From an uncultured Myxococcia bacterium (GTDB taxonomy: Bacteria > CAZTWC01), in NCBI GenBank assembly GCA_964617105.1, contig CAZTWC010000013.1, forward strand, positions 1-29,225: a stretch of DNA of 29,225 bases, in the 5' to 3' direction. The position numbers were made by a program, and so were the translations under genes. Below, piece after piece: positions 3,848-21,876 of this stretch (position 1 is the stretch's first letter; every line of letters starts with the position of its first letter). The notes beneath the pieces are model-generated. The model ran no database searches and was not told the origin of the DNA. It saw only the letters and a program-made list of their open reading frames with translations.

Positions 3848-5353
3848 CTAACTGACTTTGTTTTGTTTTACCTCTTTGCCGTCAAAAGTGATGATGCTCT
3901 TGTCGTCACCAAGTTGGGTGAGGATATTAACCGGTCTGGACCAAATCGTGTAAATGTTGCGCAAAGTGTCGCAGGCATAGTCTGTTTTCAGATCCACCCC
4001 TTCGTGCTGATGGACCAAGAGCAACTCTCCTCGATTTTCATAGTTGGCGTTTTCAACGTAGATAATGGGCTGACCAAAATTGGTCAAACTGTGGAGTAAC
4101 TTATTTTTGATTATTTGAAATTTTCTGCTCTCGATCACCCAGTTTTTGCTCTTTTCGTGGTATCCATAGGTAAAGAGTTTATATTCGCGGCAAAACTCTT
4201 CGGTTAAAAATTCATCTATGAAAGTAACATCGTTGTAATATTTACGTACTTCGAATATTTTTTCCCGTCCTTTGTTAAGGTGGGTATTCCAGTTGTTGCG
4301 CACCGCCATATTTTCGCATTCCCGGTATTCCTTACCAAAACGTCCCTTGTTCCAACGGTCTTCGATGTGGCGAAACAACTCTATCCCCAGTTTGTATGGG
4401 TTGATTCGACCCGGACTGGTGCCCAGGGTGCCAGAGTGGTGGTCGGCATAATCGATCACTTCCGAGTCGTCCAGCGCTTTGGTGGTCATTATCTTGGAGT
4501 GCCAAAAGGAAGCCCAGCCTTCGTTCATTATTTTGGTCTGCCCTTGAGGCGCAAAATAGTAACTCTCTTCCCGGATAATGGAGAGGATGTCGCTTTGCCA
4601 CTTTTTCATAGGAGCATTTTCCTGTAAAAAGAGAAGGACATCTTTTTCTGGTTCCTCAGGAAATTTGCGCACCATCTCCTTGCGTAGTTTTTCCTGTTTG
4701 AGCACCTCTTTTTGTTTATCCAAAAAATTTTTAGGATTAACGTAGTTGGACATATACTCCTTGTTCACCTTGAATTTTTTTACATCGATCTTTTCATCGT
4801 TATCATCTTCCTCAACTTCAGCCCGGTGACGTTTTATAAAAGGGGAATAGTAATCGATTAAATTTTCCAGGCTAAGGCAAGTATCGATAAAAGATTCAAC
4901 TTTTTCCACCCCGTATTTGTCCATGTATTTTCTTACCCGGGTGGCGTGGTTGGCCATTTCGTCCACCATTTTCCGATTGGTGTGTGCAAAAAAGTAATTG
5001 TTTTTAAAAAAATCGCAGTGACCGTAAACATGGGCGATGACTATTTTTTGGTCAACCAGAGCGTTACTTTGCAAGAGATAGGCATAACAGGGATCGTTAT
5101 TGATCACCATCTCGTAGATTTTGGATAACCCGTAAGTATAAGATTTGGAGAGTTGGTCATACTCCATGCCAAAACGCCAGTGCGGATAACGGGTGGGAAA
5201 TCCTCCATAGGCAGCCACCATATTGATCTCATCGTATTTACAGACCTCGAAAATGGTTTCAAAAAAATCGAGGCCGTAATCTTTGGCGTATCCTTTTATG
5301 TTTTCCTGGATATCTGCCAGTTTAGGAGGAAGATTGCGATTAAAAAATGTCAT
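3848..5353 (-). CDS. spoVR: SpoVR/YcgB family protein
   Basis: The 501-aa product has an N-terminus ...YGLDFFETIFEVCKYDEINMVAAYGGFPTRYPHWRFGMEYDQLSKSYTYGLSKIYEMVINNDPCYAYLL... characteristic of SpoVR. The RBS is AGGA, 8 nt upstream. It lies 37 bp downstream of the yeaH-like gene on the same strand. Confidence 0.8.
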   Translation of the reverse strand: MTFFNRNLPPKLADIQENIKGYAKDYGLDFFETIFEVCKYDEINMVAAYGGFPTRYPHWRFGMEYDQLSKSYTYGLSKIYEMVINNDPCYAYLLQSNALVDQKIVIAHVYGHCDFFKNNYFFAHTNRKMVDEMANHATRVRKYMDKYGVEKVESFIDTCLSLENLIDYYSPFIKRHRAEVEEDDNDEKIDVKKFKVNKEYMSNYVNPKNFLDKQKEVLKQEKLRKEMVRKFPEEPEKDVLLFLQENAPMKKWQSDILSIIREESYYFAPQGQTKIMNEGWASFWHSKIMTTKALDDSEVIDYADHHSGTLGTSPGRINPYKLGIELFRHIEDRWNKGRFGKEYRECENMAVRNNWNTHLNKGREKIFEVRKYYNDVTFIDEFLTEEFCREYKLFTYGYHEKSKNWVIESRKFQIIKNKLLHSLTNFGQPIIYVENANYENRGELLLVHQHEGVDLKTDYACDTLRNIYTIWSRPVNILTQLGDDKSIITFDGKEVKQNKVS

Positions 5354-5390
5354 ATCGTTTATCCTGCCTGATGTTCTACTGTACTGTGCA

Positions 5391-6500
5391 CTACTTACCT
5401 TTGCCCAAAAACTCTTTTATTGAATCGAATATCCCATCTTTACCTTTAATTTCCGAGGTGACAAGATTTTCATTGTCCGAAAGATGCTGACCCAACTCTT
5501 TGATAAACTGGCCACTGCCGTATTGGCTTTCCACCTGGCCATAACAGAACATGTTTACCTGAGCCAACATTTTTTCTTTGAGTAATTTGATACAAACACT
5601 GGAATCATCGGTTGACCAATTGTCGCCATCGGAAAAGTGAAAGGGGTAGATATTCCACTCAGAGGGATTGTAATCTTCGTCAATAATTTTATCACATAAT
5701 TTATAGGCACTGCTGATCATGGTTCCGCCGCTCTCCCGGGTGTGGAAAAAAGTTTCTCGATCCACCTCCCTGGCCACGGCGTCATGGATAATATAGCGGG
5801 ACTCGATCCCTTCGTAGTTGGCGGACAACCAGGTTTCTATCCAAAAAGATTCTATCCGCACAATTTCCTTTTGCTCTTCACCCATAGAGCCAGAAACATC
5901 CATCATATAAATAATAACCGCGCTGGAAGTGGGTATCCTGGTGATCCGGATTGCCCGGTAACGCTTGTCTTCCCGGTGAGGAATCACCATCGGCCGCTTG
6001 GGGTTATAGGTACCGCTGGCAATTTGGCGCTGCAAGGCTTGGCGGTAAGTTCGTTTGAAATGGCGCAGGGATTCGGGACCGGCTGTATATACACCGGTAT
6101 ATTTCAACTTTTCGGCGATGATATTCTTTTTCCCCTTGGGTTCGATGCGGGGCAGTTCCAACTCTTCACCCATAATTTCAGCCAACTCCTCCAGAGTGAC
6201 ATCCACTTCCAAAACATGTTCGCCCGGCTGATCGCCCGCCTCCTTACCATCGCCCGGTTGCACCTGTCCCGGCTGCAGGACCTGTCCCTCCTCACCGTCT
6301 CCCTGCCCGACTCCACCAGTATTTTTATGGCCAAAACGAAATTTGGGGATCTCAATCTGTGGCAGGGGAATACTGACTATATCTTTCCCCTTTTTGCCCA
6401 GCAGTTCCCCTTTGGTAATATACTTTTTAAGATTTTTTTTGATCCTGCCCTTAATGATTTCTTTGAAGCGGCTGTGATCTTGCTTAATTTTTTGTACCAT
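5391..6500 (-). CDS. YeaH/YhbH family protein (DUF444) with a C-terminal vWA-like domain
   Basis: The 369-aa product has ...[34 protein letters not shown]... and a MIDAS-like [15 protein letters not shown] typical of UPF0229/YeaH. It sits between prkA and spoVR, as in the conserved prkA-yhbH / yeaG-yeaH arrangement. Confidence 0.8.
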
Positions 6501-6510
6501 GGTTTTTTAT

Positions 6511-6656
6511 TGCATCCGCATTATTACCTATTAATTTAAGAATGTGGAGGCGCTCGGATAACTAGGCGCCGTTTCTAAAATCACAGCAGGCGTATGATAA
6601 TACGTCGAGGATAATTTTAGAAACGGCAACAACGTTAGCCGAGATGCATCCGCATT
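6511..6656. repeat. Structured intercistronic element between prkA and the yeaH-like gene. A 12-bp direct repeat TGCATCCGCATT (6511-6522 and 6645-6656) flanks a perfect 13-bp inverted repeat CCGTTTCTAAAAT / ATTTTAGAAACGG (6569-6581 / 6614-6626).
   Basis: All repeats were read directly from the sequence. One direct-repeat copy lies 4 nt after the prkA stop and the other 11 nt before the yeaH-like ATG. The inverted repeat would form a 13-bp stem with a 32-nt loop in the operon mRNA. No SD sequence precedes the yeaH-like start. Confidence 0.35.
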
Positions 6657-6659
6657 CTT

Positions 6660-8729
6660 CTACTTGTCTTCTTTTATGTCGCCTCGGGCAAATATACTCG
6701 CCACAAAATTCAGCACATCAGTAGCGCAAATTTCGCAATAGCCGTATCCATCGATCAACCGCTGTTTGACTACATCAATTTTCTCCTGGGTATCTTTGTC
6801 CACCACTGCACTCACCAAACTTTTCAACTTGATGGTGTCTTTCTGGTCTTCAAACAATTTCAACTCCAGCGCTTTTTGCAGCCTCTCGTTGGTGCGATAA
6901 TCAAATCCCTTACCATCCACAGCCAGGGCACCGATGTAGTTCATTATTTCGCGTCTGAAATCGTCTTTGCGTGATTCCGGAATCTCAATTTTTTCTTCAA
7001 TAGAACGCATCAGTCTCTCATCAGGCTCCTCGTATTGGCCGGTGTATTTGTTTTTAATCTTCTCTTTTTGAGTGTAGGCTTTTACATTGTCGATATAGTT
7101 GCTGCACAACTTGGTGATAGCGTTTTCATCGGCGGAAATTGCTTTTTGTACTTCATTTTTAATGATATCTTCATATTCCTGTTTCACCACATTTAGCAAA
7201 TCGCTATAATGCTTACGCATATCCTTGCTGGTGACCAAAGAGTGGTGTTTCATACCGGCTTCCAATTCATTTAAAACCAGGAAGGGGTTAATACAGCCTT
7301 CCGCTTTGTCGCTAACCAGGGAATTGGACATTTTATCCTGCACGTAACGAGGGCTTATCCCCTCCATTCCCTCGCGCTCCGTTTCTTTACGCAACTCTTT
7401 AATATTATCTTCTGTAAAGCCGCTTAAGGTTTTTCCATCGTAAAGTTTTAACTTCTGCAACAGGGTAAGGTTGTGTTTTTTGGGCTCTTCCAGCCTGGTG
7501 AGCACCGCCCACATGGCAGCCATCTCCACGGTATGGGGAGCAATGTGTTTTCCCTTGATTCTTTTGGTGTTAAAATCTCTGGAATAGATTTTGATCTCTT
7601 CTGAGAGTTTGGTGATATAGGGAATATCTACTTTGATGGTCCGATCACGTAAGGCTTCCATGAACTCATTGTTCTGAAGTTTTTTAAATTCCGGTTCATT
7701 GGTATGGCCGATGATCACTTCGTCAATATCGGTCTGAGCAAATTTTTTCGGTTTAATCTTATGCTCCTGGGTGGCCCCCAAAAGGTCGTATAGAAAAGCT
7801 ACATCCAATTTGAGGATTTCTATAAACTCAATAATACCCCGGTTGGCTATATTAAATTCACCATCGAAATTAAAGGCGCGGGGATCGGAGTCAGAACCAT
7901 ACTCGGCGATTTTGCGATAATTGATATCACCGGTCAATTCGGTGGAGTCCTGATTTTTCTCATCTTTAGGCTGAAAGGTGCCTATACCGCAGCGGTCTTT
8001 TTCGCTCAAGATCAACCGGCGCACGGTAATATGCTTGATCACTTTGCTCCAGTCGCCGTTGTACCGCTTGCTTAACTCGCTGAAAACATAGCGGCAGGCC
8101 GGGCACAACTCGCCGGTATTGGGAATAAGATACTCCTTGTTGCCCAATCCCAACTCGTTAAAAACCCTATCACGCCATTCCGCTGGAATCAGATGGATTG
8201 GGTCCTCGTGCATGGGGCAATTCATGATTTCTTCAACATCTTTACCATCCAAATTTTTACGCATAAATTTCCAGGTAAAAGTGTACATGGTCCCTTCCGG
8301 TATTTTACTGTAATCTTCCCGCCCTTTTTTCATCAATCTGGCGATAGTGCTCTTAGAACTTCCCACCGGGCCGTGGAGTAAAATTACCCTCTTTTCTGGT
8401 CCATATTGGTTGGCGGCTGATTTAAATACATTTACCAGTTTCATTAGAGAAATATCCAGGCCATAGATTGCATCGGCGCCACCAAATTTTTCATCTTTAA
8501 AAAAATTGTAACTAACAATCTTCTTTTTATTGTCCATATACTCGGTTTTACCATAGGAGGTGATCATATCGTATAGATGCTGAAATGCTGTCCTGGTAAC
8601 CCGGGGATTTTCTTTGACAATCTGCAGGTAATCCTCAAAATTTCCTACCCAGTTCAGCTCCTGGTACTGCCTGGTGTCCTGTAATTTGGCAATAACATCT
8701 AACATTGTTTTTTTTGCAGACCTAGCCAT
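6660..8729 (-). CDS. prkA: PrkA family serine protein kinase (AAA+ ATPase N-terminal domain plus C-terminal kinase domain)
   Basis: [56 protein letters not shown]... and the Walker [11 protein letters not shown] are typical of PrkA/YeaG. I moved the start from the track's 8807 to the ATG at 8729 (complement of 8727-8729). That ATG is preceded by AAAGGAGG 8 nt upstream. The longer ORF adds 26 non-conserved residues and has no RBS. Confidence 0.85.
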
Positions 8730-8823
8730 AAGTATTTTGCCTCCTTTAAATATAAAGATCTGGATATAATAATTTTCTTGACTTTTCCCGGAACACTCAC
8801 CCCACAAATAATTTCAAACTAAC

Positions 8824-9045
8824 TCACGTTACCGCTTCAACCCGCTCAACTTCCGGTATTTTCTCTTTTAGTCTTTGCTCTACTCCCATTTTCAGGGTCA
8901 TCGCAGCTCCCGGACAACCGGCACAGGCACCCTGAAGTTTTACAAAAACAACGTTATCCTTAACATCAACCAATTCGATATTTCCGCCATCAGCGATTAA
9001 AAAAGGTCTAATCTCGTCTAATACTTTTTCTACTTTTTCTTTCAT
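8824..9045 (-). CDS. NifU/Nfu-like Fe-S cluster assembly/carrier domain protein
   Basis: The 73-aa product has ...IRPFLIADGGNIELVDV...LQGACAGCPGAAMTLKMGVEQRLKEKIPEV..., the NifU C-terminal domain with a CxxC. The RBS is AGGAGG. Confidence 0.75.
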   Translation of the reverse strand: MKEKVEKVLDEIRPFLIADGGNIELVDVKDNVVFVKLQGACAGCPGAAMTLKMGVEQRLKEKIPEVERVEAVT

Positions 9046-9191: not shown

Positions 9192-10280
9192 ATGAATAAA
9201 AACCATCTTCCATTGGAACAGTACGAACCATTTTTCACCTCTTTTCAATCTGGGGTACTGGTCTGCCAGTTTAACGGCAAAATAGTGTATTTAAACCCGG
9301 CCGGGGAAGAGATACTTGAATACTCCAAAACAGAACTCCAATCCAGGAACCTTAACGATATTCTCAGCCCAGAGGAAAAAAAGAGGGTGGCCCGGATTAT
9401 GTCCAGAATAATTAACCGGGAAAAACTGAACTCCTTTGAATCCCTGGTAGTCAGCAAATCTGGCTTGAAGATGAGATTGCATTTTTCTATCAATACCCTG
9501 TTTTTAAACCAGCAGCATATTATCCTCTTGTTTGACGATATCACTCAGGCCTGGGTGCTAAAAGTAGAACGGGAAAAGACTAAATATTTTTTGGAAAATT
9601 TAGTCAACTCCTCGGTGGATGCTATTATTTCCGCCGACATGAATGGCTACATCACCTTTTTTAATCGGAGTGCTACCCGAATATATGGTTTTGCTGCAGA
9701 AGAGGTGGTGGATAAAATGCATGTTGCCCAACTATACTTCCCAGGGGAGGCGAAAAAAGTGATGCAAATGCTGCGCAGCAAAGAATTCGGCGGCGTGGGC
9801 AAACTCAATTCCATAGAACAATATGCCTTAAGTCGGGCAGGGGAAAAAATTCCAATTAGAATGACGGCGGCGATTATTTATAATCAAGAGCAAGAGATAG
9901 GAACCGTGGGGATTTTCAGCGATATGCGGGAAAAACGGAAAATGGAGGAAAAACTACAAACTGCCCAAAATAAATTGCTCATTCATGAAAGGCAGATTGC
10001 CATGGCCGAACTGGCGGGCGCCACTGCCCATGAATTAAACCAGCCGCTCACCGTGTTATTGGGCTCCTTTGAACTTTTAGAAATGGACTTAGCCCAGGAT
10101 GACCCACTTAGAAAAGAGTTAAAAGTGATCGAGCAGGAGTTGGAACGGATATCCAATGTAGTAAAAAAAATCGGCCAATTAACCCACTATGAAACTAAAT
10201 CTTACGTTGGTCAGACCACTATTGTGGACCTGGAAAAGTCATCTACTTCGGAGGACCAAGATATTATCGATAATCCTTAA
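9192..10280 (+). CDS. PAS-PAS-HisKA protein: a sensor histidine-kinase fragment with an H-box but no HATPase_c catalytic domain
   Basis: Two PAS-like segments are present (…VYLNPAGEEILEYSKTEL… and …SVDAIISADMNGYITFFNRSATRIYGF…). A coiled-coil/HisKA region follows: ERQIAMAELAGATAHELNQPLTVLLGSFELLEM. The ORF ends ~90 aa later with no N/G1/G2 boxes. Aspartate kinase starts 25 bp downstream, so there is no room for a lost ATPase domain. Confidence 0.7.
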   Translation: MNKNHLPLEQYEPFFTSFQSGVLVCQFNGKIVYLNPAGEEILEYSKTELQSRNLNDILSPEEKKRVARIMSRIINREKLNSFESLVVSKSGLKMRLHFSINTLFLNQQHIILLFDDITQAWVLKVEREKTKYFLENLVNSSVDAIISADMNGYITFFNRSATRIYGFAAEEVVDKMHVAQLYFPGEAKKVMQMLRSKEFGGVGKLNSIEQYALSRAGEKIPIRMTAAIIYNQEQEIGTVGIFSDMREKRKMEEKLQTAQNKLLIHERQIAMAELAGATAHELNQPLTVLLGSFELLEMDLAQDDPLRKELKVIEQELERISNVVKKIGQLTHYETKSYVGQTTIVDLEKSSTSEDQDIIDNP

Positions 10281-13358: not shown

Positions 13359-14759
13359 ATGGCTTTTCGAATCCTCATTGCTGATGATGAAGAAGATTCA
13401 AGGGAAACTTTTTCCCAGTTTTTTACCAAGAGTGGTTACGATGTAGAAACAGCGGACAACGGTTTTGATGTGATCTTGCGAGTGAAACAACAAGACTACC
13501 ACCTGCTGCTTCTGGATAATATTATGCCTGGCAGCAATGGGGTGGAGGTGTTAAAATATTGTCAAAAACACAAACCAGACTTGCCAATTGTTCTATACAG
13601 CGCCCATGCCAAAATGGAAGATGTGGTCTCCATAATGGAGAAGGGTGCCCAAAAATTTTTCCCTAAAGAAACGGCCCTGGCCACCATGGAAAAACATATT
13701 GCCGAAATATTGACCAATAAATACCAACAAATGAAACCGGAGTCGGAAAACGATTCCCAAACCCCTGCCACCGGCGACTGCCACTATCTTGATATGATTG
13801 GCGATGACCCCAAGATGAAAAAGATTTTCGGTATTATCGAACGAGTTGCCAAGACCGAAAGCACGATATTGGTTACCGGGGCAAGCGGTACCGGCAAAGA
13901 GTTGGTAGCCCGGGCAATTCATACCAGAAGCAAACGAGGTAAAGGACCCTTGGTACCGGTAAATTGCGCTGCCATCCCCGATACGCTTTTAGAAAGCGAA
14001 CTGTTCGGCTATGAAAAAGGGGCTTTTTCCGGTGCAGTAAAATCCAAACCTGGACGTTTTAAAATGGCGGACAAAGGTACCATCTTTCTGGACGAGATAG
14101 GAGATATGCCGCCTTACCTACAGGTAAAATTGCTGCGGGTGCTGCAGGACAAATCATATATTCCCCTGGGAGGCATCCAGGAGATGAGCGCCAACTTCAG
14201 AGTGGTTTCCGCCACCAATAAAGATTTGGAAAAGGAGATCGCCGAGGGAAACTTCAGGGAAGATCTATATTTCCGTCTCAACGTAATTCCAATTAGTATT
14301 CCACCTCTGCGGGAACGACGGGGAGACATCCCTTTGCTGATAAACAGTTTTTTAAACAAAATAAATAATAACGAAGACTTATCAGTGGAAGGGGTAGAAA
14401 AAGAGGTTATGGAGAAATTGTTCCGTTACGATTGGCCGGGCAATGTTAGAGAACTGGAAAACATGGTGGAAAGAATGATGATTTTTCGCGGGGAGGGAAA
14501 TATTCTCCTGGAGGATGTTCCGCAAAAGATCTTGGGCAACCAATCTGGCAAAGATGAGACCCCATCAATGGAAGTGGGTGAAGATGGCATAGATTTCAAC
14601 CAGGTAATAAGTGAGATGGAAAAAGACCTGATCTTACAGGCCTTGGAACAAACTGGATGGAATAAGAACAAAGCAGCCAGCCTGCTCAATTTGAATCGAA
14701 CGACTCTGGTGGAAAAAATAAAAAAGAAAAAATTAAAGCCCTCTTCTGAGGATAATTGA
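13359..14759 (+). CDS. Sigma54-dependent response regulator, NtrC family (REC + AAA+ sigma54-interaction domain + C-terminal Fis-type HTH)
   Basis: The REC domain has the acceptor Asp in HLLLLDNIMPG. Walker A is VTGASGTGKE. The GAFTGA-type loop reads GAFSGA. ...FRLNVIPISIPPLRERRGDIPLL... is typical of the family. The C-terminal HTH is KNKAASLLNLNRTTLVEKIKK. Confidence 0.85.
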   Translation: MAFRILIADDEEDSRETFSQFFTKSGYDVETADNGFDVILRVKQQDYHLLLLDNIMPGSNGVEVLKYCQKHKPDLPIVLYSAHAKMEDVVSIMEKGAQKFFPKETALATMEKHIAEILTNKYQQMKPESENDSQTPATGDCHYLDMIGDDPKMKKIFGIIERVAKTESTILVTGASGTGKELVARAIHTRSKRGKGPLVPVNCAAIPDTLLESELFGYEKGAFSGAVKSKPGRFKMADKGTIFLDEIGDMPPYLQVKLLRVLQDKSYIPLGGIQEMSANFRVVSATNKDLEKEIAEGNFREDLYFRLNVIPISIPPLRERRGDIPLLINSFLNKINNNEDLSVEGVEKEVMEKLFRYDWPGNVRELENMVERMMIFRGEGNILLEDVPQKILGNQSGKDETPSMEVGEDGIDFNQVISEMEKDLILQALEQTGWNKNKAASLLNLNRTTLVEKIKKKKLKPSSEDN

Positions 14760-14909
14760 GATCTCATTTAGAAATAGCTTGCCAAAGATCATAAATTAAT
14801 TTAAAAAATTAAATACCTAAAATCAGCAATTGACTCACGGATTGAGGTTGTTGTAAATTTTAGGTAATGTCTATTAAATTAAAAATTACTCATACATTTT
14901 GGAGGAGTT

Positions 14910-15200
14910 ATGGCTGATGCATTAGGTATGATTGAAACTAGAGGTTTTGTCGGTATGGTTGAGGCATCTGACGCAATGGTAAAAGCAGCTCGAGTGGAGT
15001 TGGTAGGCTATGAAAAAATTGGCGGCGGTTTTGTAACCGCATTGGTCAGAGGTGATGTAGCGGCGGTCAAAGCGGCCACCGAGGCTGGTTCCAGAGCGGC
15101 TGAACGAGTTGGTGAACTGGTTAGCGTCCACGTTATTCCTCGTCCCCATGCTAATATAGATCTCGTGTTACCCCTGGGCAGAAAAAACCAGGTATCTTAA
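14910..15200 (+). CDS. BMC-H shell protein (hexamer-forming, PduA/EutM-like, Pfam00936 domain)
   Basis: [60 protein letters not shown]... is a canonical BMC-domain sequence. The RBS is GGAGG. Confidence 0.9.
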
Positions 15201-15253: not shown

Positions 15254-15559
15254 ATGTTAATCGGAAAAGTTATCGGTACTGTGGTGTCAACCCGCAAGGA
15301 AGAAACTTTGAAGGGGTTGAAGTTTTTGCTGCTTAGACCAACGGATGAAGCGGGAAAACTAAAAGCAAAAGATGATCCGGTGGTAGCCGCAGATGCAGTA
15401 GGCGCCGGAGTTGGAGAATTGGTGCTTTATGCCACTGGCAGTGCATCCAGGCAGACTCATCTCACCGATGAACGGCCGGTTGATGCAGTAATTATGGCCA
15501 TTGTAGATATGATTGATAAAGACGGCAACATTTCCTATAATAAGGCGGAGTCTGAGTAG
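15254..15559 (+). CDS. BMC-P vertex protein (pentamer, EutN/PduN/CcmL family)
   Basis: MLIGKVIGTVVSTRKEETLKGLKFLLLRP...VAADAVGAGVGELVLYATGSASRQ is typical of EutN/CcmL. The product is 101 aa. Confidence 0.85.
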   Translation: MLIGKVIGTVVSTRKEETLKGLKFLLLRPTDEAGKLKAKDDPVVAADAVGAGVGELVLYATGSASRQTHLTDERPVDAVIMAIVDMIDKDGNISYNKAESE

Positions 15560-15702
15560 TTTTAATTGTTTGTGGTTCTGCCTTAATTTTCCTTACCAAA
15601 CTTAGTCTTCTTCTCTATATTTCTGAAAATTCCCTTATTTTTTATCTGAAACTTTAACTTGTCTATTATATCTTTAACCAATTTATTACATGGAAACACA
15701 AA

Positions 15703-16005
15703 ATGGATGCAAAATTTTTTGAAGAGTTGAGCCTGGAACAGTGGAGCCAATGCCGCAATCAGTTGATTACCTTATCGCAGGACCAAAAAGCCCTGGCTGA
15801 TTTTATTGCCGAGATGAGCCAAAAAATCCCTTTGGCCGGTGAAATATGGAAAGCCATCCGGTTAAATACGGCTCAAAACCAAAAGCAGGAAGGCGAAGAG
15901 AAAGAAAATAATCCCAACCAGGACAAATTGATCGAAATGAGCGGAGATTTAAACTTTTTTTGTTTCCTTTACTCGCTGGGAAAACAGGCGAAAATTTGGG
16001 AATAA
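15703..16005 (+). CDS. Hypothetical 100-aa protein inside the BMC operon. It is predicted helical with an acidic/polar middle and a hydrophobic C-terminus, and shows no recognisable family.
   Basis: The ORF is in operon orientation. It follows a 143-bp CT-rich spacer and ends 20 bp before the aldehyde dehydrogenase ATG. Its RBS is weak (GGAAA). I could not match it to PduL, PduV, EutJ or any other known BMC accessory. Confidence 0.4.
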   Translation: MDAKFFEELSLEQWSQCRNQLITLSQDQKALADFIAEMSQKIPLAGEIWKAIRLNTAQNQKQEGEEKENNPNQDKLIEMSGDLNFFCFLYSLGKQAKIWE

Positions 16006-16025
16006 AATTATGGGAGTATAAAAAA

Positions 16026-17495
16026 ATGCACCTGGACGAAAAAAGGATAGACGCCATTGTGGAAAAAGTGGTGAGTAAATTGGCCGGTGAACAGATGGCT
16101 AAACCATTAGGGATGAAACCAGTTTCCAGCCATGCAAGCGCTAACGCCTCTCCGTCTCTAGTAACCGGAAAATATTTCTCCGGTCCTGGTCAGGTGGGGG
16201 TATTTCCCGATATGGATTCTGCCGGTGAAGCAGCCGGCAGAGCCCAGGAACAATTGGTAAAACTTCCTTTGCAGATGCGAATCAGAGTAATTGAGGCTAT
16301 GCGGGAGGTATCCAGGCAACACAACCGTGAACTAGCCGAGATGACGGTAAAAGAGACCGGGATAGGTAGAGTGGCGGACAAAATAAATAAAAATCTGCTG
16401 GCCATAAATAAAACTCCTGGGGTGGAAGACTTGAAACCCATCGCCTGGTCTGGTGATGACGGCTTGACCCTGGTGGAGCGGGCGCCTTACGGGGTGATTG
16501 GCTCTATAACTCCCTGCACCAATGCGACTGAAACTATTATATGCAATGCCATTGGCATGATAGCCGGTGGAAATGCTGTCATATTTAATGTTCACCCTGC
16601 AGCCAAGAATATTTCCAATTACTATATCTCTCTGTTAAACAAAGCCATTGTGGCGGTGGGCGGACCGCCAAACCTGCTATGCTGCATTAAAGAGCCCACT
16701 ATCCAAAGCGCCCAGGCCCTGATGAGCCATCCTGCCATCAGGTTATTGGTGGTCACCGGCGGTCCAGCAGTGGTAAAAGTGGCCATGCAATCAGAAAAAA
16801 AGGTGATCGCCGCCGGACCGGGTAATCCTCCAGCGGTAGTGGATGAAACTGCTCACATTGAAAGGGCGGCCCAAAATATTATCAAAGGCGCCTCCCTGGA
16901 TAACAATATTGTCTGCGTGGTAGAAAAAGAGTTCATTGCGGTCAGCGATATTGCCGATATGCTAAAACAGTATATGCTGCGGTACGGTGCATACGAAGTT
17001 ACCGGGCGACAACTGGCCCGACTGGAAAAAGTGGTGTTAAAAGGAGATGGGGTTAACAAAGATTGGGTTGGGAAAAATGCCAACCGGATTTTAGATCAAA
17101 TTGGGATATCTGCTTCCGATGACCTACGCTTGATATTCTGCGAAACCTCAGAAGACCATCCCTTTGTGCAGCACGAATTGCTGATGCCGGTGGTGCCTCT
17201 TATTCGAGTATCTCATGTGGACGAAGGGATTGCCATGGCCAAAAGGGTGGAGCACAATTTCAGGCATACCGCCTGTATCCACTCCACCAATATCGAAAAA
17301 CTACACAAAATGGCGGTGGTTATGGACACGTCTATTTTTGTTAAGAATGCACCCTCTTACGCCGGACTGGCTCTGGGCGGCGAGGGATACACCTCTTTTA
17401 CTATCGCCAGTCCCACCGGCGAAGGGCTTACCTCTGCCAAAGACTTTACCAGAGTGAGACGCTGCGTGTTAAAGGACTACTTCCGGATCGTTTAA
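16026..17495 (+). CDS. CoA-acylating aldehyde dehydrogenase (PduP/EutE-like) with an N-terminal BMC encapsulation peptide and linker
   Basis: The start was moved to ATG 16026, which has a GGGAG RBS ~10 nt upstream. The track ORF from 15960 adds 22 residues that overlap the upstream gene. The N-terminus MHLDEKRIDAIVEKVVSKLAGEQ is an amphipathic helix. It is followed by a ~45-aa G/S/P-rich linker. The core contains ITPCTNATETIICNAIGMIAGGNAVIFNVHP and the catalytic-Cys block LDNNIVCVVEKE, as in EutE/AdhE-type acylating ALDH. Confidence 0.85.
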   Translation: MHLDEKRIDAIVEKVVSKLAGEQMAKPLGMKPVSSHASANASPSLVTGKYFSGPGQVGVFPDMDSAGEAAGRAQEQLVKLPLQMRIRVIEAMREVSRQHNRELAEMTVKETGIGRVADKINKNLLAINKTPGVEDLKPIAWSGDDGLTLVERAPYGVIGSITPCTNATETIICNAIGMIAGGNAVIFNVHPAAKNISNYYISLLNKAIVAVGGPPNLLCCIKEPTIQSAQALMSHPAIRLLVVTGGPAVVKVAMQSEKKVIAAGPGNPPAVVDETAHIERAAQNIIKGASLDNNIVCVVEKEFIAVSDIADMLKQYMLRYGAYEVTGRQLARLEKVVLKGDGVNKDWVGKNANRILDQIGISASDDLRLIFCETSEDHPFVQHELLMPVVPLIRVSHVDEGIAMAKRVEHNFRHTACIHSTNIEKLHKMAVVMDTSIFVKNAPSYAGLALGGEGYTSFTIASPTGEGLTSAKDFTRVRRCVLKDYFRIV

Positions 17496-17500
17496 TTATC

Positions 17501-18838
17501 ATGCAAAAAAATCGCCTGATTAAGTTGGTTGAGGAGGCTGGCGTTGTTGGAGCCGGCGGGGCAGGTTTTCCCTCTCATCTAAAGATATCATCTAAAGTTG
17601 ATACGGTAATCGCTAATGGGGCCGAGTGTGAACCGCTCCTATATACTGACCAGACCGCCATGATTGAACAAACGCGCGAATTAGTGGCTGGATTGGAGAT
17701 GGTGGTTAATATCACTGGCGCCCAAAAAGGGATCATTGCGCTTAAAAGCGTCTATCAAGACTGCATCAAAAAATTAAAGGCCGCGATAAAGGGAAAAAAT
17801 GGGATTGAACTATTTTTGTTAGAAGATTTTTATCCTTGCGGAGATGAGCATGTTCTCACCTTTGAAGTTACCGGCAGGCTGGTTCCTCAGCGGGGAATCC
17901 CTCTGGAAACCGGGGTGCTGGTGCACAACGTCACTACCCTGATCAATATTTATCATGCCAGCCATGGTCAAAAGGTGGTGGATCGAGCCCTTACCGTTAC
18001 CGGAGAAGTAAAAAATCGCGGCGTGATTAAAGTGCCTGTAGGGACATCAATAAAAGAGGTGCTGGCTCAATGCGGCGGCCCTACAGTTCATCCCTTTAGA
18101 GTGATTTGCGGCGGACCGATGATGGGAAATGAGGAGGAAGATCTGCTTCAATCCGTAGATAAACTCACCGCCGGCCTGATAGTTCTGCCGGCTAACCATC
18201 TTTATTTTACGTTGAGAGGTGCGGAGAGTAAAAAGGCCCAGGGTTACCTTAGCCGGGCCACCGCCTGTATTCAGTGCAGCGACTGCACTTCTCTTTGCCC
18301 CCGTTATTTACTCGGGCATCAAATTCAACCTCATATCTTGATGCGCAATATCACCTTCTCTGGCCCAGATCCCCAAAAGGGCTCTCAGGCTTTGCTATGC
18401 TGCCAGTGTGGTCTTTGCTCTCTCTACGCCTGCTCCCAGGGCCATTCCCCCCGCACCCTGTGTATCCAACTAAAAGAGATGGGCGCCAGTCAAAATATCG
18501 AGCCGCCCGTAAAGATGGTGCCGCCCGCAGTGCGAGAGGGACGTAACTACAAAAAGGTCCCCAAACTAAACCTGGTCAGGGCTCTAAAATTAGAGAAATA
18601 TTACCATCCGTTAAAAACCATTATTCCCAATGAAAATTGGACCAGGGTTCGGATAAAAATGCTGCAGCATTTTGGCCAACCAGCCAAATCAATAGTAACT
18701 AAAGGAGAGATGGTAAAGAAAGGGCAAACCATTGCCCAAATGGCTTCAAAACAATTAGGTGCCAACATCCATGCCTCTATTTCCGGCCAGGTAGTAAAAG
18801 CGAACCGGAATGAAGTGGTGATAAAAAAGGTTAAATGA
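17501..18838 (+). CDS. PduS-like RnfC/NuoF-family Fe-S flavoprotein (BMC-associated oxidoreductase)
   Basis: The N-terminus ...VVGAGGAGFPSHLKI...VIANGAECEPLLYTDQ matches the RnfC/PduS nucleotide-binding region. There are two 4Fe-4S motifs: CIQCSDCTSLCP and CCQCGLCSLYAC. The start is 6 bp after the ALDH stop. Confidence 0.8.
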   Translation: MQKNRLIKLVEEAGVVGAGGAGFPSHLKISSKVDTVIANGAECEPLLYTDQTAMIEQTRELVAGLEMVVNITGAQKGIIALKSVYQDCIKKLKAAIKGKNGIELFLLEDFYPCGDEHVLTFEVTGRLVPQRGIPLETGVLVHNVTTLINIYHASHGQKVVDRALTVTGEVKNRGVIKVPVGTSIKEVLAQCGGPTVHPFRVICGGPMMGNEEEDLLQSVDKLTAGLIVLPANHLYFTLRGAESKKAQGYLSRATACIQCSDCTSLCPRYLLGHQIQPHILMRNITFSGPDPQKGSQALLCCQCGLCSLYACSQGHSPRTLCIQLKEMGASQNIEPPVKMVPPAVREGRNYKKVPKLNLVRALKLEKYYHPLKTIIPNENWTRVRIKMLQHFGQPAKSIVTKGEMVKKGQTIAQMASKQLGANIHASISGQVVKANRNEVVIKKVK

Positions 18839-18902
18839 CAGTGTTCACAGGAAAATTAACTGCCATATGAAATTTGGACAAGCAAAGAACTGAGGAAAAA
18901 AG

Positions 18903-19457
18903 ATGTCTTATAAAGATCCCGCCATCGGCATGATAGAAACTTTGAGTATAGCAAAAGGGATGGTGGCCTGTGACACTATGGCTAAAAAAGCCCCTGTCAG
19001 CGTACTCCAGGCCCACAGCATCTGCCCGGGAAAATTTTTAATTATCATCAATGGCGAAGTTTCTGAGGTAGAAGAGTCTATGATGGTGGGAGAAAATAGT
19101 GCGGACCACTACCTGGTAGACAAACTCTTTTTACCCCATGTCGACCCCCAGGTAGGGCCGGCTATTACCCGCACCAACCATATAGAAACTATAAAATCGG
19201 TAGGAATTATAGAAACCTTTACCGCTGCTTCAATAATTTATGCGGCTGATGCTGCCGCCAAGTGCACATCCATAAAACTGATAGATATCAGAATAGCCAA
19301 TGGACTGGGGGGGAAATCCTACCTGACCTTAACTGGTGAGTTGTATGAGGTTGAGGCCTCCATTAAGGCTGGAGTTGAAAAGATCGACACCGGACTTTTG
19401 GTGCAAACCGAGATTATTCCCGCACCCCACCCAGATTTTGTGGCACATCTGTTCTAG
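18903..19457 (+). CDS. BMC-T shell protein (tandem BMC domains, PduT-like) with the conserved pore cysteine
   Basis: The 184-aa product has two BMC domains: AIGMIETLSIAKGMVACDTMAKK...SICPGKFLIIINGE and VGIIETFTAASIIYAADAAAKCT.... It closely parallels Salmonella PduT, including the Cys in the sICPGKF loop that ligates a 4Fe-4S cluster at the trimer centre in PduT. The RBS is GAGGA. Confidence 0.85.
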   Translation: MSYKDPAIGMIETLSIAKGMVACDTMAKKAPVSVLQAHSICPGKFLIIINGEVSEVEESMMVGENSADHYLVDKLFLPHVDPQVGPAITRTNHIETIKSVGIIETFTAASIIYAADAAAKCTSIKLIDIRIANGLGGKSYLTLTGELYEVEASIKAGVEKIDTGLLVQTEIIPAPHPDFVAHLF

Positions 19458-19502: not shown

Positions 19503-20180
19503 TTATCCCCGCAGAGGGGTGCGGCATTTCATACAGAAATTGCTCTTTTCGGTGAGCATCACCTTGTTTTGACAGGATGGACACTGGACGGTGAGTAATC
19601 CCTTCATGGTTTCAATCGCTTCCAAGGCAATCTGGCTGGCCGAAGGGTCTTGATCCACGTAGGCCATCAACTTTGTCAACCTCTCTAAGATCGGCACAAA
19701 TTTAAACTTGGTGCCAATCTCTAAATAGGCTCTCTCCTTGGCAGGCAAACTCTCAGCCTTGGCTGATTCGCCCTTACGGTCATGAATCAATTTTTTGATT
19801 TTGGATAGCAGGACATTGGGATTAAACTCATCGCTCTTAACAATATAATCGTCAGCACCCAAATTTTCGATTAAATAGACAATGTCGTTTTTGGAACGCA
19901 CTGCTGTGTACATAATAACCGGTAAATTTTTAAAAGTGGAATGAGGTCCCTTGAGTAATTTCAAAAGTCCTCTACCATCTATACTCCCGGGCATCTCTAC
20001 ATCCAGGATAAGACAATCGAATACAAACCCGCGCTTTTTGCCGTCTAAGAGTTTCATGTAGGCGCCGTGACCGTTCTCAGCCTCTTCTACCTTAAAATCC
20101 TCTTTTATCAGAAAAGTAGATAAAACTTTTCTAACCAGGGGCTCATCGTCCACTACCAGGATGCTATATTGGTGTACCAT
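19503..20180 (-). CDS. Response regulator receiver (REC) protein with a C-terminal double-CxxC zinc ribbon. It has no classical DNA-binding output domain.
   Basis: The REC domain has ILVVDDEPLVRK... and the acceptor Asp in CLILDVEMPG. The C-terminus reads ...TVQCPSCQNKVMLTEKSNFCMKCRTPLRG. The RBS is GAGGGAG. It is convergent with the BMC operon. Confidence 0.75.
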   Translation of the reverse strand: MVHQYSILVVDDEPLVRKVLSTFLIKEDFKVEEAENGHGAYMKLLDGKKRGFVFDCLILDVEMPGSIDGRGLLKLLKGPHSTFKNLPVIMYTAVRSKNDIVYLIENLGADDYIVKSDEFNPNVLLSKIKKLIHDRKGESAKAESLPAKERAYLEIGTKFKFVPILERLTKLMAYVDQDPSASQIALEAIETMKGLLTVQCPSCQNKVMLTEKSNFCMKCRTPLRG

Positions 20181-20544: not shown

Positions 20545-21876
20545 ATGAGACAATGTCCATTATGTCAAGAAGAGTTGGAGACAGATGCTAATTTCTGTCC
20601 TGTTTGTGGGGTTGATTTTGAGCAACTGAAAGTTAAAAAGCGCTCCCTTAGTATTGAACCGCAACAGCTCTCCAACGATCTGGACGAGATGCTGGCTTTA
20701 CAGGAACAAGGTGTTTGCTCCAAGGAATTATATATAAAACTGGCAACTTTTTTTCTGAATCAAGAGCGCCTGAATGAGGCCAACGAACAGATAAGCGCTT
20801 TTTTACAAGAAAGTGGCAATGACGTGGAAGCGCTGATGTTAAAAGCGCGAATTATCAAGAAAACTGATGACAAAGAACAATTGAAAGAGGTCTATGCAAC
20901 TGTGGCAGAACAGGGCTATTTCGACCAGGAAGAAACCTTTATCGCCATCCGGGAATTAATAGATATTTATCAATCGGAAAATGATCTGGATAATCTAATT
21001 AAATACCTGGAACTTTTAATTTACACCGCTCTGCACGATGACCCCCTGGTCCGTAAAAAGGTGGGCACTGATTTTTCCTTTATTGACAAACATGAGCACC
21101 TATTACACGAGATGCCCGGGTATATGGAAAATTATTCCATCCTAAGAGGCCTTATCGGTTTGATTAACCAGGATCTGAATGAACTTTACCGGATGCTGGG
21201 CATGAGTTATTTTAAACAAGAAAAATTCTTTCAGGCGGCTAACGCTTTTTACGGTATTGCCGATATAGATCCTTCCCATGCCTACTTTGCCCTGACATTG
21301 ATAAAAATAAAAAAATATAGCAGGGCAGCTGAACTGTTTGATCAAATAGAACCAGATACAATAGCCTTCAATCAAGAGGAGGAGGCGATATTGCAGGAGG
21401 CATTTATAGCCTTTTTAAAACAAAAAAAAACTAGTTTTCAACGTCGTTGTGAAATTGCTCAAAAAGCCCTGGCAATTTTGCCGGAAAGAGAAGAAATCAA
21501 ACAGGCAATAAGTGCTCTCTACAAGCGTCAAGGGTTGAAGTTGCTCTCTAATCAGGAGGAAACCCGGGGGCTGGAAGCGCTGGAGGAGGCTAATAAATAT
21601 TTTCAAGACCAGCAAATTGAAGAAACCTTACAAAAAGTTTACTCCAACCGCAGTAGAAGGGAAAAGATTATTGCCATTAAACGCTATTCGCTAAGTATTC
21701 TTTCCATGCTATTTTTCTCCCTGGTGATGCTGGTTATATTTTTAGCAATTTTTGGCGATATTGGCCAAATCTGGCAAGAGGTCAATACCCTTTTGAAAGA
21801 AAGTTTCGCTGGAGGCAACAGTGCAGAAATCCGACATACACCTATAAACATACAATTCTGGCGAATGCCTGGCTAG
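20545..21876 (+). CDS. Membrane-anchored protein with an N-terminal double-CxxC zinc ribbon, a TPR-like alpha-helical repeat region and a C-terminal TM helix
   Basis: The N-terminus is MRQCPLCQEELETDANFCPVCG. The repeat region is helical and rich in L/A/E/K/Q, with ...AANAFYGIAD.., ...YFALTLIKIKKY.. pairs. The C-terminus LSILSMLFFSLVMLVIFLAIFG is a predicted TM segment. Confidence 0.6.
   Translation: MRQCPLCQEELETDANFCPVCGVDFEQLKVKKRSLSIEPQQLSNDLDEMLALQEQGVCSKELYIKLATFFLNQERLNEANEQISAFLQESGNDVEALMLKARIIKKTDDKEQLKEVYATVAEQGYFDQEETFIAIRELIDIYQSENDLDNLIKYLELLIYTALHDDPLVRKKVGTDFSFIDKHEHLLHEMPGYMENYSILRGLIGLINQDLNELYRMLGMSYFKQEKFFQAANAFYGIADIDPSHAYFALTLIKIKKYSRAAELFDQIEPDTIAFNQEEEAILQEAFIAFLKQKKTSFQRRCEIAQKALAILPEREEIKQAISALYKRQGLKLLSNQEETRGLEALEEANKYFQDQQIEETLQKVYSNRSRREKIIAIKRYSLSILSMLFFSLVMLVIFLAIFGDIGQIWQEVNTLLKESFAGGNSAEIRHTPINIQFWRMPG

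Follow-up and report, generated by a model that had tools for sequence, protein, structure and literature searches.

How is NAD+ regenerated inside a bacterial microcompartment (BMC) whose locus encodes an aldehyde dehydrogenase and no alcohol dehydrogenase? The question is raised by contig CAZTWC010000013.1 of an uncultured Myxococcia bacterium (GenBank assembly GCA_964617105.1), of which positions 1 to 29,225, the whole stretch of DNA analyzed, are called the window here. The window carries a minimal aldehyde-oxidizing microcompartment locus with the core gene order BMC-H, BMC-P, AldDh, MNdh, BMC-T, all on the plus strand. The last two genes occupy positions 17501-19457 and are co-oriented: an open reading frame (ORF) of 445 amino acids (aa) at 17501-18838 encodes MNdh, a metabolosome NADH dehydrogenase of the PduS type, and one of 184 aa at 18903-19457 encodes a PduT-type tandem-BMC trimer shell protein. 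We propose that these two genes probably constitute an MNdh/BMC-T^SE module that oxidizes NADH and lets the electrons leave the shell of this minimal aldehyde-oxidizing compartment, a reading that draws on gene content, alignments and comparison with published systems.

The interpretation itself is already published, and the locus serves as confirmation and is not new to the field. Axen et al. (2014, PMC4207490) raised the possibility that PduS, together with a Cys-bearing PduT homologue, shuttles electrons across the shell and that PduS stands in for a missing alcohol dehydrogenase; a 2010 paper (PMC2982820) had already proposed PduS-PduT interaction and cross-shell electron transfer. Sutter et al. 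(PNAS 2024, PMC11626177) subsequently named the pair MNdh/BMC-T^SE and counted it in 2,172 of some 7,000 loci. According to that study, its genes lie side by side in 97% of the pair-bearing loci, MNdh always occurs together with AldDh, the motif CP(G/S)K in the shell protein is universal next to MNdh, and a circular permutation that places the barrel domain at the C-terminus is the hallmark of MNdh; 361 AldDh loci have the pair and no alcohol dehydrogenase, and 1,725 have both systems. Outward electron transfer and NAD+ regeneration are backed there by in-vitro activity assays, electron paramagnetic resonance (EPR), voltammetry and X-ray footprinting, with the module characterized from the Clostridium botulinum GRM1 locus (PMC11626177).

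Transferred to the window, this model would work as follows. The encapsulated AldDh would reduce NAD+ to NADH in the lumen, and MNdh, which has no targeting peptide of its own, would dock on the BMC-T trimer from the lumenal side, being recruited through BMC-T^SE as described for the published module (PMC11626177). MNdh would oxidize NADH at its flavin mononucleotide (FMN) and pass the electrons one by one through two [4Fe-4S] clusters to a further [4Fe-4S] cluster, which three copies of Cys41 would hold at the trimer pore. From the pore cluster the electrons would then go to an acceptor in the cytosol (ferredoxin, flavodoxin or O2), and NAD+ would be regenerated without turning half of the aldehyde into alcohol. 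Our expectations for cluster occupancy, MNdh-BMC-T binding, electron direction and acceptor identity are carried over from the published model (PMC11626177). The preliminary description of this DNA had arrived at the same picture, with NADH re-oxidized by a PduS-like protein and electrons leaving through an Fe-S pore in place of an alcohol dehydrogenase, and the comparisons below lend support to it. So read, the locus would recycle NAD+ electrochemically across a protein shell with three shell genes and two enzymes, a compact example from nature.

Both ORFs are, judged by their Pfam domain matches and, for the ORF at 18903-19457, by matches to PduT-type crystal structures, real genes and not chance matches. 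MNdh has a four-domain architecture consisting of Complex1_51K (PF01512, aa 10-152, 3e-44), SLBB (PF10531, aa 165-209, 4e-11), Fer4_17 (aa 255-314, 4e-12) and RnfC_N (PF13375, aa 377-438, 3.7e-14). The last of these, the RnfC barrel-sandwich domain (18629-18814, plus strand), aligns to residues 33-81 of the RnfC chain 7zc6_C; it is thus C-terminal in MNdh and N-terminal in RnfC/NuoF, a circular permutation. The MNdh gene shares its BMC locus with a pfam00171 AldDh gene and directly adjoins a BMC-T^S gene, and taken together the window shows every sequence-level character by which the MNdh/BMC-T^SE family is recognized.

The cofactor sites were assessed in a MAFFT alignment of the window protein with its 120 best database homologues (41-47% identity, n = 121). 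The glycine-rich FMN-binding loop GVVGAGGAGFPSHLK (17540-17584, plus strand; aa 14-28) pairs with GIVGMGGATFPTHVK of RnfC 7zc6_C, and its residues G14, G17, G19, G20, G22, F23, P24 and K28 are invariant in 121/121 sequences, as are N39, E42, C43, E44 and P45 of NGAECEP (aa 39-45) and P112, G114, D115 and E116 of PxGDE (aa 112-116). All three FMN/NADH motifs (GxxGxGGxGFPxxxK, NGAECEP and PxGDE) align to the same motifs of solved RnfC, so that the residues whose loss the preliminary description had named as fatal to its proposal are retained. The first [4Fe-4S] motif, C256-x2-C259-x2-C262-x3-C266-P, lies in CIQCSDCTSLCP (aa 256-267, 18266-18301, plus strand) and aligns to RnfC CINCGKCVQVCP; the second, C300-x2-C303-x2-C306-x4-C311, is CCQCGLCSLYAC (aa 300-311, 18398-18433, plus strand). 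The Cys at 256, 259, 262, 266, 300, 303, 306 and 311 are invariant in 121/121. The x4 spacing of the second motif, one residue longer than in RnfC 7zc6_C, is shared by 107 of the 121 homologues. The two cluster motifs described earlier are therefore both present with four invariant Cys each, with one correction: the second peptide had been quoted with a fifth Cys, C301, which is not conserved (Cys in 60 and Ser in 51 of the 121 sequences), and because C300, C303, C306 and C311 are invariant and C301 is variable, the former four are the likely ligands of the second cluster. An encapsulation signal, which had also been suggested as something to look for on the PduS-like protein, was not found; neither terminus is extended relative to the homologues.

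The closest sequence matches to MNdh among solved structures are RnfC chains (7zc6_C, 4.7e-51; 9eri_C, 2.1e-45; 8ahx_C, 1.2e-33), with the match split in two pieces because the barrel is N-terminal in RnfC and C-terminal in MNdh. An AlphaFold2 model built from the 121-sequence alignment has a mean pLDDT of 93.7 and a pTM of 0.93 and is poor only in the loop around residues 245-247. Compared with the Protein Data Bank (PDB) by Foldseek, the model retrieved five RnfC entries at the top (E 2e-25 to 6e-22), followed by NuoF-type subunits; the root-mean-square deviation to RnfC (9eri_C, 8rbm_C and 7zc6_C among the best) is 2.5-3.7 A over about 337 columns. As modelled, MNdh has an RnfC-like fold. 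The protein resembles RnfC of the Rnf ferredoxin:NAD+ oxidoreductase (7zc6, 9eri, 8ahx) in its FMN/NADH site and two [4Fe-4S] motifs, as well as in these best sequence and fold matches. It differs from RnfC in the C-terminal barrel, the x4 rather than x3 spacing of the second motif and the lack of rnfABDGE genes nearby, and its partner appears to be a shell protein, not a membrane complex. The NCBIfam rnfC subfamily model is barely exceeded (250.8 against a cutoff of 245.95), and in two separate stretches. An identity as the RnfC subunit of a membrane Rnf complex was rejected on account of the C-terminal barrel and because the window contains no rnf genes.

The shell protein contains two PF00936 BMC domains (1e-40) within its 184 aa, which places it among the single-layer tandem proteins. 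A phmmer search against PDB sequences returned 3nwg (1e-44), Citrobacter PduT 3pac (7.5e-39) and Salmonella PduT 3n79 (1.1e-35). The motif SICPGKF spans aa 39-45 (19017-19037), and the Cys41 codon at 19023-19025 (plus strand) specifies the predicted pore ligand, one per subunit and three per trimer, within a C-P-G-K motif. Up to the motif the alignment has no gaps and sets residue 6 of the window protein against residue 3 of the chain, so at this constant offset of 3 Cys41 falls on residue 38 of Salmonella PduT, a position known in PduT to ligate the [4Fe-4S] cluster of the pore; the placement of this Cys at the PduT pore, as originally described, is thus borne out. At the same position the chain 4nwn has Ser (ISPGKF) and 3pac has ICPGKF. 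Cys41 also fits CP(G/S)K, the motif reported to accompany MNdh in every case (PMC11626177). The protein scores 118.5 bits against the NCBIfam eut_PduT equivalog TIGR02526, below the cutoff of 250.3, and because of this shortfall it is to be regarded, on its sequence, as a PduT-type protein and not a PduT ortholog.

The pore Cys and MNdh also go together across related loci. A scan with an AldDh profile over one genome per GTDB species yielded 80 further loci (best AldDh match 62%, the window's own genome being absent from the set scanned), and the residue at the pore position was recorded for each BMC-T with enough upstream sequence in a set of 84 loci, with two near-duplicates left out. Cys was present in 16/18 BMC-T adjoining an MNdh gene (the other 2 have another residue) and in 2/48 BMC-T without an adjacent MNdh gene (46 with another residue), an association with a Fisher p of 2.5e-11 over loci that are not phylogenetically independent. 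The two MNdh-adjacent proteins that lack the Cys have Asn (L050:5049-6964) and Ser (L057:9414-11336); in both loci the MNdh-like protein lacks the GAGGAGFP FMN loop, and in L050 its first Fe-S motif is incomplete as well. The pore Cys thus appears to decay along with the cofactor sites in L050 and L057, and this coincidence argues for functional coupling. Both loci depart from the CP(G/S)K rule that was reported as universal, and do so with degenerate MNdh-like proteins, a mildly new observation. The two cases of Cys without MNdh, L077 and L078, are Bacteroidales and Spirochaetales loci, in keeping with reports that SPU2 loci retain the Cys. This fresh 84-locus set independently reproduces the published rule that the pore Cys accompanies an intact MNdh, and adds the two cases of joint decay. 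A separate variant of the motif, C-A-G-K instead of C-P-(G/S)-K, was seen in two MNdh-adjacent BMC-T (L029:10843-11382, PICAGKY; L071:10756-11289, PVCAGKY).

The source of lumenal NADH would be AldDh, a CoA-acylating aldehyde dehydrogenase of 489 aa (16026-17495, plus strand; NCBIfam PRK15398, 674 bits against a cutoff of 403), which is encoded immediately upstream: its stop codon and the MNdh start are 5 nucleotides (nt) apart, MNdh and BMC-T are separated by 64 nt, and a GAGGA ribosome-binding site precedes BMC-T. The catalytic Cys297 is invariant in the homologue alignment, and the corresponding database protein, P0121, begins at the same ATG (16026). Residues 1-21 (16026-16088) form an encapsulation-peptide-like N-terminal helix, MHLDEKRIDAIVEKVVSKLAG, with the consensus MxLDExxIxxIVEKVVxxL in 19 homologues, and in these a hypervariable linker rich in Pro, Ala and Ser separates the helix from the catalytic domain. 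By its conservation pattern and position the N-terminus would be an encapsulation peptide, the usual layout and one that fits the description of HO loci; its hydrophobic moment is unremarkable (0.37 against a background of 0.28 +/- 0.13).

No alcohol dehydrogenase, phosphotransacylase (PTAC), aldolase, B12 enzyme or Rnf subunit was detected when every large ORF of the 29-kb window was searched with Pfam, and PTAC, class II aldolase, acetate kinase and EutQ gave no tblastn match there. The absence of an alcohol dehydrogenase that the preliminary description had noted therefore holds for the window, as distinct from the genome. The window likewise contains no aldehyde-producing signature enzyme and, by Pfam, no diol dehydratase, ethanolamine ammonia-lyase, adenosyltransferase or B12 recycling gene, and tblastn revealed no second BMC-P or BMC-H in it. 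The further statement that MNdh and BMC-T are the only accessories besides the aldehyde dehydrogenase is right for the annotated genes and strictly too narrow: a putative gene of 100 aa (15703-16005, plus strand) lies in the 466-bp gap between BMC-P and AldDh (15560-16025). In related loci this spacing is only about 10-40 bp and contains no such ORF. The orphan ORF has no Pfam or NCBIfam match, and a HMMER scan of 1.84 billion representative proteins matched only itself; its exact sequence is present on 5 contigs.

Several points weigh against the proposal that MNdh and BMC-T export electrons from this compartment. The locus is known here from its sequence alone, and the published AlphaFold docking, taken by itself, was undecided between lumenal and cytosolic binding of MNdh (PMC11626177). 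The window MNdh has two rare substitutions: Cys113 (17837-17839) in the YPAGDE motif, where 106 of 121 sequences have Ala and only the window protein has Cys, and Ser312 (18434-18436), at the position following the last cluster Cys, which is occupied by Pro in most homologues. The genes of the window point to no external electron acceptor; with no PTAC, the locus offers no evident route for CoA recycling; and an alcohol dehydrogenase, a PTAC, a signature enzyme and more shell genes could sit in satellite loci beyond the 29 kb.

This last point is the core of the strongest rival explanation, which we consider unlikely though deserving of serious weight: MNdh would supplement an alcohol dehydrogenase route, an encapsulated alcohol dehydrogenase, PTAC and signature enzyme would be encoded in satellite loci, and the minimal locus would be an artefact of the 29-kb window. 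The published census, with 1,725 loci having both systems against 361 having only MNdh (PMC11626177), speaks for it, as does the tendency of HO- and FRAG-type microcompartments to be spread over several loci (PMC8217296). Moreover, PTAC is found upstream of the same core in L031, L038, L040, L042, L056, L060 and L071, and in L032 the core is followed by genes for a class II aldolase and two further BMC-P. Set against this, no alcohol dehydrogenase lies beside the core in the related loci inspected, of which L032 was the one examined with Pfam, and the window itself has neither alcohol dehydrogenase nor PTAC nor aldolase. A different challenge concerns the direction of the current. RnfC-type modules are reversible in Rnf complexes. 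By analogy with this reversibility, a cytosolic reductant could feed the BMC-T cluster and MNdh could make NADH inside the shell, for instance for reduction of acyl-CoA to aldehyde by AldDh, and the lack of an aldehyde-producing signature enzyme in the window would suit such inward flow. The published EPR and voltammetry, however, support the order NADH to FMN to Fe-S to BMC-T (PMC11626177), and the AldDh clade is one of catabolic metabolosomes, aldolases being the signature enzymes in sister loci, which leaves inward flow very improbable.

Two further readings are less probable still. That the pair is vestigial or structural, with BMC-T a mere shell tile and MNdh inactive, gains some credence from the real decay in L050 and L057, where an MNdh-like protein without FMN loop stands beside a BMC-T without Cys; in the window, unlike in those two loci, all ligand and cofactor motifs are intact, and the AlphaFold2 model is confident across the cofactor domains, so that a vestigial pair would be very surprising. 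Least credible of all is a cobalamin reductase serving a B12-dependent enzyme, the classical function of PduS and its original assignment in Salmonella and Citrobacter (PMC2982820). There is no B12-related gene in the window, MNdh is widespread in B12-independent loci, and the RnfC-like fold leaves little room for a corrin (PMC11626177); the candidate was rejected for want of a B12 context, there being no B12 signature enzyme or recycling gene in the window.

Export of electrons through MNdh and BMC-T^SE remains the preferred reading. The locus is only mildly new, in the apparent swap of the module into an HO-like minimal core, in the co-degeneration seen in L050 and L057, and in the orphan ORF. 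The window shares with the published MNdh/BMC-T^SE systems the four domains, the permuted C-terminal RnfC barrel, the two four-Cys motifs, the adjacent BMC-T^S with C-P-G-K, and an AldDh in a locus without alcohol dehydrogenase, the type with 361 reported cases; it differs in that its MNdh is only 41-47% identical to the nearest homologues. Unlike the C. botulinum GRM1 locus, it houses the module in a minimal locus resembling the HO and MIC7 types, from a metagenome-assembled genome (MAG) that is low in GC and related to Myxococcota, where, within the 29-kb window, BMC-T^SE is the sole BMC-T and MNdh the sole enzyme besides AldDh. The Pdu systems of Salmonella and Citrobacter have members of the same PduS and PduT families, with the pore Cys at PduT Cys38, whereas the window is without B12-dependent diol dehydratase, PduQ and PduL. 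In HO- and MIC7-type metabolosomes the main locus encodes little beyond shell proteins and AldDh, with PduS/T occasional (Sutter et al. 2021, PMC8217296, Supplementary Data 2). The window agrees with these in its AldDh, which has an N-terminal encapsulation peptide, as predicted above, and falls in a Myxococcota/Deltaproteobacteria clade (P0121 is 57-65% identical to homologues of Myxococcota and other 'Deltaproteobacteria'). It departs from the HO type in having one BMC-P and not a triplet, no BMC-T^dp (HO has two) and a Cys-bearing BMC-T, although other genes could lie outside the window.

The closest relatives by AldDh, L001-L005 (63-65%), have BMC-H, BMC-P, AldDh and BMC-T and no flavoprotein, and many Myxococcota MAG loci (L007-L024) show the same order, again without flavoprotein. 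Unlike the window, these HO-like relatives place a Cys-less BMC-T directly after AldDh, with Ser, Ala or Thr at the position of the window's Cys (ISPGK/R against ICPGK). The block BMC-H, BMC-P, AldDh, MNdh, BMC-T(Cys) is found elsewhere, in Nitrospinota (L025, L032), Deltaproteobacteria (L029), Chloroflexota (L035), Planctomycetota (L080), Riflebacteria (L038, L056) and others, often with two more BMC-P after it or PTAC before it; L032 also has an RpiR regulator and, by Pfam, the class II aldolase. In a neighbour-joining tree, computed without support values, the window BMC-T falls within the group that holds all MNdh-linked Cys-bearing BMC-T, next to the Nitrospinota pair and apart from the Ser/Ala/Thr proteins of the closest-AldDh loci, and the window BMC-H is 88-89% identical to those of the Nitrospinota loci L025 and L032. 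The nearest MNdh homologues come from other locus types, namely a PTAC/acetate-kinase locus (P0020, L031; 46-47%) and an SPU-like locus (P0001; 45%). Since the loci with the closest AldDh lack MNdh and have a non-Cys BMC-T, while the MNdh homologues belong to other locus types, the pattern suggests module exchange, in which MNdh/BMC-T^SE would have replaced the structural BMC-T of an HO/MIC7-like core; the mosaic fits the published view of the pair as a mobile housekeeping module. Among the best MNdh homologues, several with about 43% identity (P0025, P0027, P0040) are annotated as Candidatus Hodarchaeales (Asgard archaea), in line with the archaeal microcompartments with MNdh reported in a 2025 preprint (10.1101/2025.11.08.687404).

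A bolder version of the exchange, which we regard as doubtful, would have a Myxococcota-type minimal locus swap its Cys-less structural BMC-T for an imported MNdh/BMC-T^SE cassette, so that the sole trimer tile of the shell is also the electron conduit and AldDh and MNdh are the sole lumenal enzymes, with the orphan ORF perhaps a new adaptor or cargo. If true, no natural organelle of the 'aldehyde in, acyl-CoA and electrons out' kind would be simpler, and it would make a compact engineering chassis. In practical terms, the locus would be of use as a minimal set of genes for reconstitution and would exemplify the exchange of a module between types of microcompartment.

The remaining core genes are those for the BMC-H hexamer shell protein (96 aa, 14910-15200, plus strand; Pfam BMC, 1.8e-30) and the BMC-P pentamer vertex protein (101 aa, 15254-15559, plus strand; Pfam EutN_CcmL, 6e-29). 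Upstream of them, a sigma-54-dependent response-regulator activator (13359-14759, plus strand; Pfam Response_reg, Sigma54_activat and HTH_8) is, by its position, a possible regulator of the locus. No -24/-12 promoter was found in the 14760-14909 leader with the pattern TGGCAC-N5-TTGCW at up to 2 mismatches, which has 17 matches in the window against 14.5 expected. The flanks are not syntenic with those of the closest AldDh loci (L004), and only the sigma-54 activators match, at 28%. L001, L002 and L004, the closest relatives without MNdh, have a conserved block in common about 3.5 kb 5' of BMC-H, with genes for an SRP54/FlhF-like GTPase, two unassigned proteins, a DUF4332 protein and a 460-aa HEAT-like protein. 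On the downstream side all three encode an unassigned protein of 275 aa, a signal peptidase, a LysM protein, TatA and a sigma-54 activator. Of both sets the window has only a sigma-54 activator, of distant similarity.

Farther upstream, the minus strand encodes a trio of PrkA serine kinase, DUF444 (YeaH-like) and SpoVR proteins (3848-8807). The window PrkA is 75-79% identical to Myxococcota PrkA despite a GC content of about 43%, which suggests a low-GC lineage related to Myxococcota. A 73-aa protein with a NifU-like Fe-S assembly domain is encoded at 8824-9045 (minus strand), about 6 kb upstream of the BMC locus. The plus-strand gene at 9192-10280 encodes a 362-aa double-PAS and HisKA protein in which no HATPase_c domain was detected, and because of this and of the aspartokinase-like gene directly after it, the product may be a truncated or split sensor kinase. 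On the other side of the locus, 46 bp from the BMC-T stop and convergent with it, a minus-strand gene (19503-20180) encodes a response-regulator receiver protein with a zinc-ribbon-like CxxC...CxxC tail at its C-terminus, and the next gene, at 20545-21876, encodes a protein with a zinc ribbon at its start and TPR repeats after it.

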